Shown one piece after another: positions 18,407-18,642 of a stretch of 64,000 nt of DNA. Position 1 is the first letter of the stretch, and every line of letters begins with the position of its first letter. Below the pieces are notes generated by a model. The model ran no database searches and was not told where the DNA came from. It saw nothing but the letters and a program-made list of their open reading frames with translations. Made by a program: the position numbers and the translations under genes. Origin of the DNA: an uncultured Clostridia bacterium (GTDB taxonomy: Bacteria; Bacillota; Clostridia; TANB77; CAG-508); NCBI GenBank assembly GCA_947630065.1, contig CANRGE010000004.1:9149-73148 (forward strand), in the 5' to 3' direction.

Positions 18407-18472
18407 AAAAAGAAGCAAGCTAATCATTTATTTTGCTATACACAAAATAAATAGATTATCTTACTTCTTTTT
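18407..18472 (-). terminator. Long AU-rich hairpin followed by a U-run, lying between the (AC)14 leader and paralog 1
   Basis: Minus-strand arms are AAGAAGTAAGATAATCTATTTATTTT and AAAATAAATGATTAGCTTGCTTCTT, forming about 24 bp with wobbles and one bulge. TTTTT follows. Confidence 0.5.
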
Positions 18473-18498
18473 TAATCTATTTTCTTTCTCGTTTATTT

Positions 18499-18561
18499 TT
18501 ATAGTCCTATTCGTGTGTGTGTGTGTGTGTGTGTGTGTGTTACAGCCTCAATGCTTTTCAT
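18499..18561 (-). CDS. 20-codon leader ORF MKSIEAV(TH)4TRIGL containing the (AC)14 tract
   Basis: SD GGGAG lies about 10 nt upstream of ATG 18561. The ORF is downstream of a consensus promoter. Whether it is translated is untested. Confidence 0.35.
   Translation of the reverse strand: MKSIEAVTHTHTHTHTRIGL
18513..18540. repeat. (GT)14 / (AC)14 dinucleotide microsatellite
   Basis: Counted directly: G18513 to T18540, 28 nt. Confidence 0.98.
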
Positions 18562-18613
18562 TCTTTACTTTCTCCCTTTTTACTCCATTTATTTTCTTTT
18601 TTCTACATTTGCA

Positions 18614-18642
18614 ATTATATATTTTGGTTTCTTTTTTGTCAA
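18614..18642 (-). promoter_or_regulatory. Perfect consensus sigma-A promoter
   Basis: Minus strand reads TTGACA (18642-18637), a 17-nt spacer, then TATAAT (18619-18614). Confidence 0.75.

Follow-up and report, generated by a model that had tools for sequence, protein, structure and literature searches.

A candidate phase-variable leader-peptide attenuator built on an (AC)14 tract upstream of a secreted-protein gene in an uncultured Clostridia bacterium

Can the length of a dinucleotide repeat in a short translated leader decide whether RNA polymerase reaches the gene behind it? The question is raised by a locus on the minus strand, at positions 18407-18642, of a 64,000-nucleotide stretch of DNA from an uncultured Clostridia bacterium (GenBank assembly GCA_947630065.1, contig CANRGE010000004.1), which is referred to here as the window and whose positions are used throughout. 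At this locus a consensus promoter, a leader open reading frame (ORF) containing an (AC)14 tract and a long hairpin precede the gene of a signal-peptide protein (18301..17663), an arrangement from which the first-pass annotation of the window proposed that the number of repeats determines whether ribosomes melt a terminator. The computational analysis described here favors that proposal, with a probability of roughly three in four: the region 18407-18642 would be a phase-variable leader-peptide transcription attenuator controlling the secreted-protein gene. The support comes from the geometry of the locus, the recurrence of the same architecture, covariation within the hairpins, variation of tract length across the family and an experimental precedent in Streptococcus gallolyticus.

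Leader, repeat and hairpin at the locus

The 5′ boundary of the switch unit is the intrinsic terminator of an upstream paralog of the secreted-protein gene (gene 19485..18802), which lies at 18689-18661 on the same strand and has a 12-bp stem with 4 GC pairs and a T-rich tail. It is followed by a sigma-70-type promoter (18614..18642) that matches the consensus at 12 of 12 positions, with TTGACA at 18642-18637, a 17-nt spacer and TATAAT at 18619-18614, and that is the top-scoring site of the scanned region; perfect sites number 4 in the whole 64-kb window, and sites with at most one mismatch number 12, against 2.4 expected. The position of the promoter predicts a transcription start near 18607. 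A Shine-Dalgarno (SD) sequence, GGGAG (18572..18576), is found 10 nt upstream of an ATG at 18561, which opens the leader ORF. The mutable element, the (AC)14 tract (18513..18540; 14.0 copies at 100% according to Tandem Repeats Finder, TRF), lies inside this leader from codon 8, and the length of its unit, 2 nt, is no multiple of 3. In the assembled register (n = 14) the leader reads MKSIEAV(TH)4TRIGL* and occupies 18499..18561, a short frame predicted to be OFF.

Recomputation of the registers gives three frame-specific stops, at +3, +11 and +49 nt after the (AC)14 tract. With n = 0 mod 3 (12 or 15 units) the leader ends at a TAG (18507..18509), and with n = 2 mod 3 (14 units, the present state) at a TAA (18499..18501), both of them predicted OFF states, while with n = 1 mod 3 (13 or 16 units) it continues as ...TNRTIKINEKENRLKKK to a TAA at 18463-18461, the predicted ON state. 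The promoter, the SD, the start codon, the repeat and the three stops are all found where the first-pass annotation had placed them. The presence of such a repeat at this locus is more than chance, because the window holds just two dinucleotide tracts of at least 6 units (the threshold was at least 8 units for (AT)n and at least 5 for (CG)n) and both carry the same 16-nt motif on their flank, AAGCATTGAGGCTGTA, which forms the 5′ edge of the tract (18541..18556 here, minus strand) and has 2 hits in the window as compared with 0.00 expected.

The hairpin, a candidate intrinsic terminator or attenuator, is AT-rich, occupies 18472-18407 and ends in a U5 tail (18411-18407), as annotated earlier; its predicted fold has 29 pairs with two 1-nt bulges rather than the approximately 24 bp given at that time, and the minimum-free-energy (MFE) stem includes pairing of an A-tract with the U-tract. 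The free energy, whose calculation had been proposed as a check, is -29.7 kcal/mol, as compared with -10.1 ± 2.6 kcal/mol in shuffled sequences (z = -7.6). The two short-frame stops, TAA 18501 and TAG 18509, lie 27 and 35 nt upstream of the hairpin, and the footprint of a ribosome would extend from TAG 18509 to approximately 18494-18498 and from TAA 18501 to approximately 18486-18490, in both cases at least 14 nt before the hairpin. The stop of the third frame falls 9-10 nt inside the 5′ arm, in agreement with the earlier estimate of about 10 nt. If a ribosome is stopped at this UAA (18463) and the 11-15 nt downstream of it are masked, a structure of -7.4 to -8.4 kcal/mol is left, which nowhere adjoins the U-tract. 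Because of these footprint positions relative to the hairpin, n = 0 or 2 mod 3 is predicted to be OFF and n = 1 mod 3 to be ON. Between the hairpin and the gene (18407-18301, minus strand) a scan, which covered sigma-70-like promoters, found no site scoring 9/12 or more, which bears out the earlier statement that this interval lacks a convincing promoter.

In the mechanism that we infer, the leader is translated, transcription ends at the hairpin, the length changes originate in slippage and expression responds to them. Transcription would start from the consensus promoter and ribosomes would load at the leader ATG at 18561, the signals for both being features of the sequence. Slipped-strand mispairing would alter the number of AC units and with it the frame read beyond the tract. 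A leader with n = 0 or 2 mod 3 would end 27-35 nt before the hairpin, allowing the hairpin and U-tract to form behind the polymerase, which would leave the gene OFF. With n = 1 mod 3, a ribosome would reach the TAA at 18463 and cover approximately 22 of the 30 nt of the 5′ arm, following which no terminator would form and the polymerase would read into the gene (ON).

A family of repeat cassettes in gut Clostridia

The architecture recurs upstream of relatives of the same gene. Among 30 loci of homologs of the regulated protein, collected by protein similarity alone, a dinucleotide tract precedes the gene by 150-200 nt in 3, namely (AC)18 in L003, (AC)10 in L030 and (AG)17 in L012. In each of them an SD-ATG opens a short leader whose last nucleotides before the tract are ...CTGTA; two frames stop soon after the tract and one remains open, and a long AT-rich hairpin with a T-run and then the gene follow, the sequences of the hairpins being unrelated to that of the window.

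The same layout extends well beyond these homologs. The sequence CTGTA(CA)8 has at least 120 matches in 185,579 species genomes, nearly all in metagenome-assembled genomes (MAGs) of uncultured Clostridia, and several matches per MAG are common among the matches listed; the counts given below for CA cassettes (94, 69, 58 and 25) rest on the usable instances among them. In total there are at least several hundred copies, almost all from uncultured gut Clostridia, in addition to phage contigs. The cassette consists of an SD-ATG, about 10-13 codons, the conserved motif AAsCCTTGnGrCTGTA, a (CA), (GA) or (TA) tract and stops in two frames. At the window locus the motif adjoins the tract, two frames close within approximately 20 nt and the third is open, as in the rest of the family, with a leader of 7 codons before the tract that is at the short end of the family range.

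All 94 usable instances have two frames that close about 2-20 nt after the tract and one that stays open, and an SD-like sequence with an in-frame ATG is present in 81. In 25 of the 94 the open frame runs for at least 300 nt, fusing the leader directly to proteins of prepilin-like, membrane-anchored or signal-peptide type, mostly in the absence of a hairpin; in the other 69 it is 34-214 nt long, and 58 of these short-open-frame cassettes have a hairpin (median -21.6 kcal/mol) whose T-rich tail starts at a median of 47.5 nt past the tract. The genes downstream are mostly prepilin-like with an SD-ATG of their own, or encode signal-peptide proteins, and promoter-like scores have a median of 10/12 upstream of the leaders as compared with 8/12 in the spacers between hairpin and gene.

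It is the position of the stops relative to the hairpin that sets these loci apart from random sequence. The later of the two short-frame stops precedes the hairpin by a median of 33.5 nt in the 58 hairpin loci. The open-frame stop is found within the 5′ arm in 19 of them, within the loop or the 3′ arm in 24, beyond the hairpin in 10 and upstream of its start, within 13 nt, in 3; in the remaining 2 the open frame does not reach the hairpin. In 50/58 loci the hairpin is reached by one frame only, as compared with 26.2 ± 3.7 (maximum 38) in 1000 shuffles of the spacer, and a set reduced to one representative per sequence cluster gives 34/39 as compared with 17.5 ± 3.0 (maximum 27) in 2000 shuffles. 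The pairing within the hairpin is preserved by compensatory changes at 11 of 20 pairs in a subfamily of 11 sequences. Cassettes with other repeat units were taken from two sets of genome contigs (L156-L274 and L275-L376) and comprise at least 72 motif-bearing GA instances, of which the hairpin-bearing set repeats the one-frame geometry (18/19 vs 5.7), and 40 TA cassettes among 122 unique matches to one motif variant.

Variation of the tract itself can be followed in sequences that share their flanks. The species-representative genomes alone, when clustered strictly, contain 3 flank-identical clusters, and polymorphism became visible only after metagenome and viral contigs (at least 120 metagenome and 39 IMG/VR contigs) had been added, which gave 22 clusters defined by flanks of 60 + 60 nt that are at least 93% identical. 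Tract length varies in 21 of these 22 clusters, always in steps of 2 nt, and in 19 the change alters the frame; one cluster of 12 members spans tracts of 26 to 38 nt. Flank-identical clusters contain both ON and OFF alleles. Among the matches listed, assemblies show the ON state in 81 of 256 unique CA cassettes, which is near the one third expected if length is unconstrained. For the window locus itself, a 70.9-kb contig from sample ERZ27249118 (L031) is 100% identical over approximately 430 nt outside the tract and has an 18-nt deletion, with (AC)5A in place of (AC)14G. An exact-flank scan of metagenomes for further alleles of the locus gave 0 matches, and contig searches with the neighboring genes returned the same contig, contigs ending at tracts, or nothing. 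Two contigs of the same species from independent assemblies, L032 (positions 1-19) and L033 (positions 1-10), end inside the (AC)14 tract, and the 3′ end of a further one, L154, lies close to where the second tract of the window is found, at 61848-61883. Such cassettes split short-read assemblies, and MAGs probably contain fewer of them than exist.

Phage contigs from IMG/VR (L377-L415, e.g., L377, L380 and L384) carry the motif and a (CA)n tract in front of small genes for proteins of 109-143 aa (MIPQIKGVKKEINNLKEQIENEDTGWINGT...). In these contigs the open-frame stop lies 31-37 nt past the tract and overlaps a small hairpin containing the SD and ATG of the next gene, which suggests that the phage cassettes may work by translational coupling. 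Tracts of 21-35 nt were seen at the same phage locus in different samples. The cassette would be a clade-wide module with three uses, as an attenuator at 18407-18642, as an in-frame N-terminal switch (61848-61883) and as a device for translational coupling in phages.

The motif at the border of the tract is the part of the cassette that the attenuation model does not explain. In the 94 CA cassettes the 19 nt preceding the tract read T-R-W-A-A-S-C-C-T-T-G-N-G-R-C-T-G-T-A, the last five of which, CTGTA, were fixed by the search pattern; CTGTA is also present in 5/5 cassettes that were found independently of that pattern. The third codon positions are the best conserved (A-16 in 94/94, C-13 in 83/94 and T-10 in 88/94), the codons are ones seldom used by an AT-rich genome and the second positions -14 and -8 vary freely, all of which argues for a constraint on the nucleotides and not on the peptide; the same pattern led to rejection of the motif as a conserved peptide. 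A scan with GAAAGCCTTGNGGCTGTA only gave, among the Clostridia matches listed, 40 followed by (CA)n, 40 by (TA)n and 1 by (GA)n, and the matches that lack a tract are mainly chance occurrences in unrelated GC-rich taxa, with a few Clostridia loci of 2-3 units. Several possible roles were tried and rejected: pairing of the motif with the 60 nt after the tract (duplex energy -7.48 vs -7.38 in shuffles), an internal hairpin formed by its AGCC/GGCT palindrome (no covariation) and pairing of its CCUU with the leader SD (0.337 vs 0.334). A function of the Thr-His repeat peptide was likewise rejected, as the same cassette uses GA (Glu-Arg) and TA tracts. Our tentative suggestion, which we hold to be less probable than not, is that the motif is a functional part of a portable phase-variation module, either as the site of a trans-acting factor or as a cis element that promotes or gates slippage or the choice of frame, and that the clade and its phages use this module to install hypermutable switches, in three wirings, before many surface-protein and receptor-binding genes. 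Nothing comparable to the motif occurs in known simple sequence repeat (SSR) switches, and it offers a handle on whether slippage is assisted or regulated.

Alternative readings and known systems

Terminators often overlap the stops of short genes, and it could be argued that the leader is itself a small phase-variable gene, encoding a peptide of about 30-60 aa at n = 1 mod 3, that the hairpin is its own terminator and that the secreted-protein gene is transcribed independently. The open-frame peptides of the family do share a weak x-x-L-L-x-N/K-K start, but they are otherwise wholly different in length (11-70 aa) and sequence, their stop may lie anywhere from the 5′ arm to beyond the hairpin, and the arms of the hairpin change by compensatory substitutions of the kind seen in RNA. 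Independent transcription is also difficult to reconcile with the lack of a promoter-like site after the hairpin here and with the weakness of such sites across the family, and a self-contained small gene with the direct fusion of the same cassette to large ORFs in 25 loci; we therefore regard this explanation as quite improbable. Much the same applies to the idea that the locus is a nonfunctional relic, i.e., the 5′ fragment of a phase-variable prepilin-like gene left behind by recombination, next to a hairpin that is an ordinary insulator or terminator. It would account for the homology between the flanks of the two window tracts (CTGTA(AC)nGAATAGGA), for an open frame that begins with NR..., like that of the pilin-fused copy, and for the 5-unit allele of the other sample, which could be a product of decay. 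A relic would not, however, be expected to retain a perfect promoter and SD within a region that, for the rest of its approximately 430 nt, is 100% conserved between samples, nor to display a leader-hairpin-gene layout that recurs in 58 loci with nonrandom frame geometry and again upstream of homologs of the same gene in other species, and we consider it very unlikely.

A further explanation, to which we assign an equally small chance, is that the tract acts without the hairpin serving as a terminator, through Rho-dependent polarity, mRNA stability or enhancement of translation by CA repeats. Frameshifted SSR genes can trigger Rho-dependent termination, as in siaD of Neisseria meningitidis, CA repeats after the start codon have been reported to enhance translation in Escherichia coli, and many GA loci lack a qualifying hairpin. 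Against such mechanisms stands the association of the hairpin and T-run with short-frame cassettes, these being mostly missing from the fusion type, together with the fact that the nonrandom feature is the stop position relative to the hairpin; no CA-specific effect is required, because the repeat unit can be CA, GA or TA.

It has to be noted that a number of observations weigh against attenuation as the function of the window locus. The U-run of the hairpin is just 5 nt long ahead of GUGUU, and a simple consensus terminator scan did not call this long, AT-rich and bulged hairpin. Few ON-frame stops of the family lie as close to the start of the 5′ arm as the one here, 9-10 nt in, so that the predicted effect depends on the assumed ribosome footprint of 11-15 nt, and a promoter of a non-sigma-70 type 3′ of the hairpin would lie outside the reach of the scan. 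Both alleles known for the locus, with 14 and 5 units, share the same OFF frame, and the 5-unit allele also alters the flanking G and may represent a locked or decayed state. The contig breaks are weak evidence of variation, because the two loci of the window share a repeat. GA cassettes lean toward the OFF state (9 ON vs 63 OFF of 72), and 19 of 55 GA short-frame loci pass the hairpin criteria; as many GA loci are without a qualifying hairpin and often have longer open frames (100-260 nt), GA wiring may differ. Lastly, part of the mechanism may be missing, since the motif is unexplained.

The closest known system is that of S. gallolyticus, in which pil1 and pil3 are controlled by a (GCAGA)n repeat in a leader-peptide gene that is followed by a terminator (Danne et al. 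2014, PLoS Pathog, PMC3894217). Leaders that stop at least 28-39 nt upstream of the hairpin give low expression there and leaders with a stop in or beyond the hairpin give high expression, and mutation of the ATG, added stops and deletion of the terminator all fit the model (PMC3894217). The two systems are alike in having a promoter, a leader ORF whose SSR has a unit length other than a multiple of 3 and, approximately 30-40 nt past the short-frame stop, a stem-loop terminator (-28 kcal/mol for pil3; predicted at the window locus), in the ON state brought about by a long leader that runs into or past the hairpin and destabilizes it through the ribosome (which is presumed for the window locus), and in serving surface or pilus-related genes of gut Bacillota. 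They differ in the unit, which is a pentanucleotide present in 13-22 copies in S. gallolyticus and a dinucleotide here, and in the logic of the switch, in that an out-of-frame change in either direction turns the S. gallolyticus genes ON, whereas here two frames are closed by stops that lie near each other and one of three is predicted to be ON. Unlike in S. gallolyticus, a conserved nucleotide motif is present at the border of the tract, and the module occurs in many copies per genome and in two further modes; the S. gallolyticus system has, in turn, been proven experimentally, whereas the present one is deduced from sequence. The window leader is an analogue and not a homologue of the pil1 leader, as the repeat and the leader differ by inspection. 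The first-pass annotation had been unaware of any description of a dinucleotide phase switch coupled to leader-peptide attenuation, a claim that fails for the principle, which Danne et al. 2014 proved for (GCAGA)n (PMC3894217), and holds for its dinucleotide version; what is new is that version and the cassette family. Neither an account of the Clostridia cassette nor an instance of the mechanism outside S. gallolyticus came to light in full-text literature searches.

Other switches share single features with the locus. Intragenic SSR contingency loci, such as Neisseria opa with its CTCTT repeats in the region coding for the signal peptide, set the frame of a surface protein through slippage of a 5′ coding repeat, as would the second cassette of the window and the 25 fusion-type members of the family; the repeat at 18407-18642 differs in that its ORF is a separate leader, closed by a stop in each of the three frames, with an output that would be transcriptional. 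In trp and his attenuation of E. coli, as here, the position of the ribosome on a short leader ORF decides whether a terminator forms. The supply of charged tRNA controls that position in trp and his, whereas here it would be set by the frame and the ribosome would act directly on the terminator stem, and the window leader has no regulatory codons. A fold of the full leader contains the terminator helix only, with no antiterminator (2:3) helix found, which means that the element is not a trp-type attenuator. Rfam covariance models identified no family for it, the sole match being sub-threshold, on the opposite strand and due to chance. In Clostridioides difficile, a recombinase-mediated inversion in the 5′ leader of cwpV decides terminator formation with no translation of the leader; it resembles the window locus in being a heritable, reversible DNA change in the leader upstream of a surface-protein gene of a Clostridium-like organism and differs in that the change here concerns the length of a repeat in a leader predicted to be translated.

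SSR-driven leader-peptide attenuation has so far rested on one organism, S. gallolyticus. The family described here suggests that gut Clostridia, which are abundant though uncultured, and also their phages make extensive use of it, the Clostridia with several switches in each genome, placed before genes for pilin-like and secreted proteins. If that is true, surveys of gut phase variation focused on invertons and methylation have overlooked a large set of contingency loci in these commensals, and the MAG gene calls for such surface proteins would be systematically wrong or truncated, because approximately two-thirds of the cassettes appear in assemblies in the OFF state and the tracts are points at which contigs break. 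The module of approximately 150 nt would also constitute a natural, tunable stochastic switch.

The second cassette, the regulated gene and its neighbors

The second tract of the window, (AC)18 at 61883-61848 (TRF), lies on the same strand as the first and belongs to a cassette with its ATG at 61912 and its motif at 61899-61884 that continues to 61285. Its edges are homologous to those of the first tract (...TTGAAACTGTA(AC)18GAATAGGA compared with ...TTGAGGCTGTA(AC)14GAATAGGA), which indicates that the same 5′ module is used both as an in-frame switch and ahead of a hairpin. No hairpin was found at the second tract. The leader of this cassette, MKNVKIVETV(TH)n, would be fused to a prepilin-type N-terminus, NRKEKGITLIALIITVILLLILAG, if the tract had 16, 19 or 22 units, so that the cassette, which is OFF as assembled, is a predicted direct in-frame translational switch. 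The prepilin-like N-terminus of the fusion reads KGITLIALIITVILLLILAG. In order to reach the 158-aa ORF at 61761..61285, the second-cassette ORF needs a further +1 shift at GCA TTG C GGA GAA (approximately 61762), and it is thus either a pseudogene or recoded.

The gene placed under control of the first cassette encodes a 212-aa signal-peptide protein of an uncharacterized family (17663..18301, minus strand), for which no sequence match was found in Pfam, NCBIfam or PDB and whose homologs are confined to MAGs of uncultured gut Clostridia (33-59% identity). It seems to be monocistronic: a terminator-like hairpin at approximately 17550-17520, related by homology to the one behind the upstream paralog, follows it, and a separate promoter-like site at 17481-17453 precedes the next gene. 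As the upstream paralog (19485..18802) is without a cassette, one of the paralogs would be switchable and the other not.

Both paralogs meet an in-frame TGA on the minus strand, at approximately 17665 (..CGG AGG TGA C) and 18804 (..CGG GGC TGA C), and a conserved C-terminus, DAG[FY]A..WHSRAVIVVGEGF, resumes exactly in the +1 frame from T|GAC GCA, the tails extending to 17602 and 18741. At the point of the TGA, 15 of 19 homologs are in frame (RR-DA.Y..W.SRAV), and all 4 exceptions are +1. The +1 tails of the two paralogs differ by 5 synonymous vs 3 nonsynonymous changes, the UGA-C is adjoined by an SD-like GGAGG or GGGG in a manner that recalls the +1 frameshift site of prfB, and the same 212-aa call is made in independent assemblies. 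The UGA-C site of the secreted-protein paralogs is consequently a candidate for a programmed +1 frameshift. A diversity-generating retroelement (DGR) as the cause of the variable, GC-rich C-terminal region of the paralogs was rejected, no template-repeat copy being found in the window.

The secreted-protein family regularly precedes a large prepilin-like gene with an N-terminus of the type KGITLIALV..., as seen in the window (15115-17364, minus strand) and in L006, L007, L019 and L024, and the two genes form what appears to be a conserved pair. The prepilin-like gene of the window is a 749-aa ORF with three internal repeats of a ...GYKIPEAFWWDNNG...YWYSKYQL module. An element of approximately 40 nt, consisting of five 7-mers (AGTGAATAGTTAATAGTGAAGAATGAATAGTGAATAA) and without a match in Rfam, is present in four copies on the minus strand (17560-17596, 18699-18735, 5982-6016 and 49764-49799), each directly upstream of a terminator-like hairpin; two of the copies follow the secreted-protein genes and two follow tRNA genes (6178-6452 and 49826-49905).

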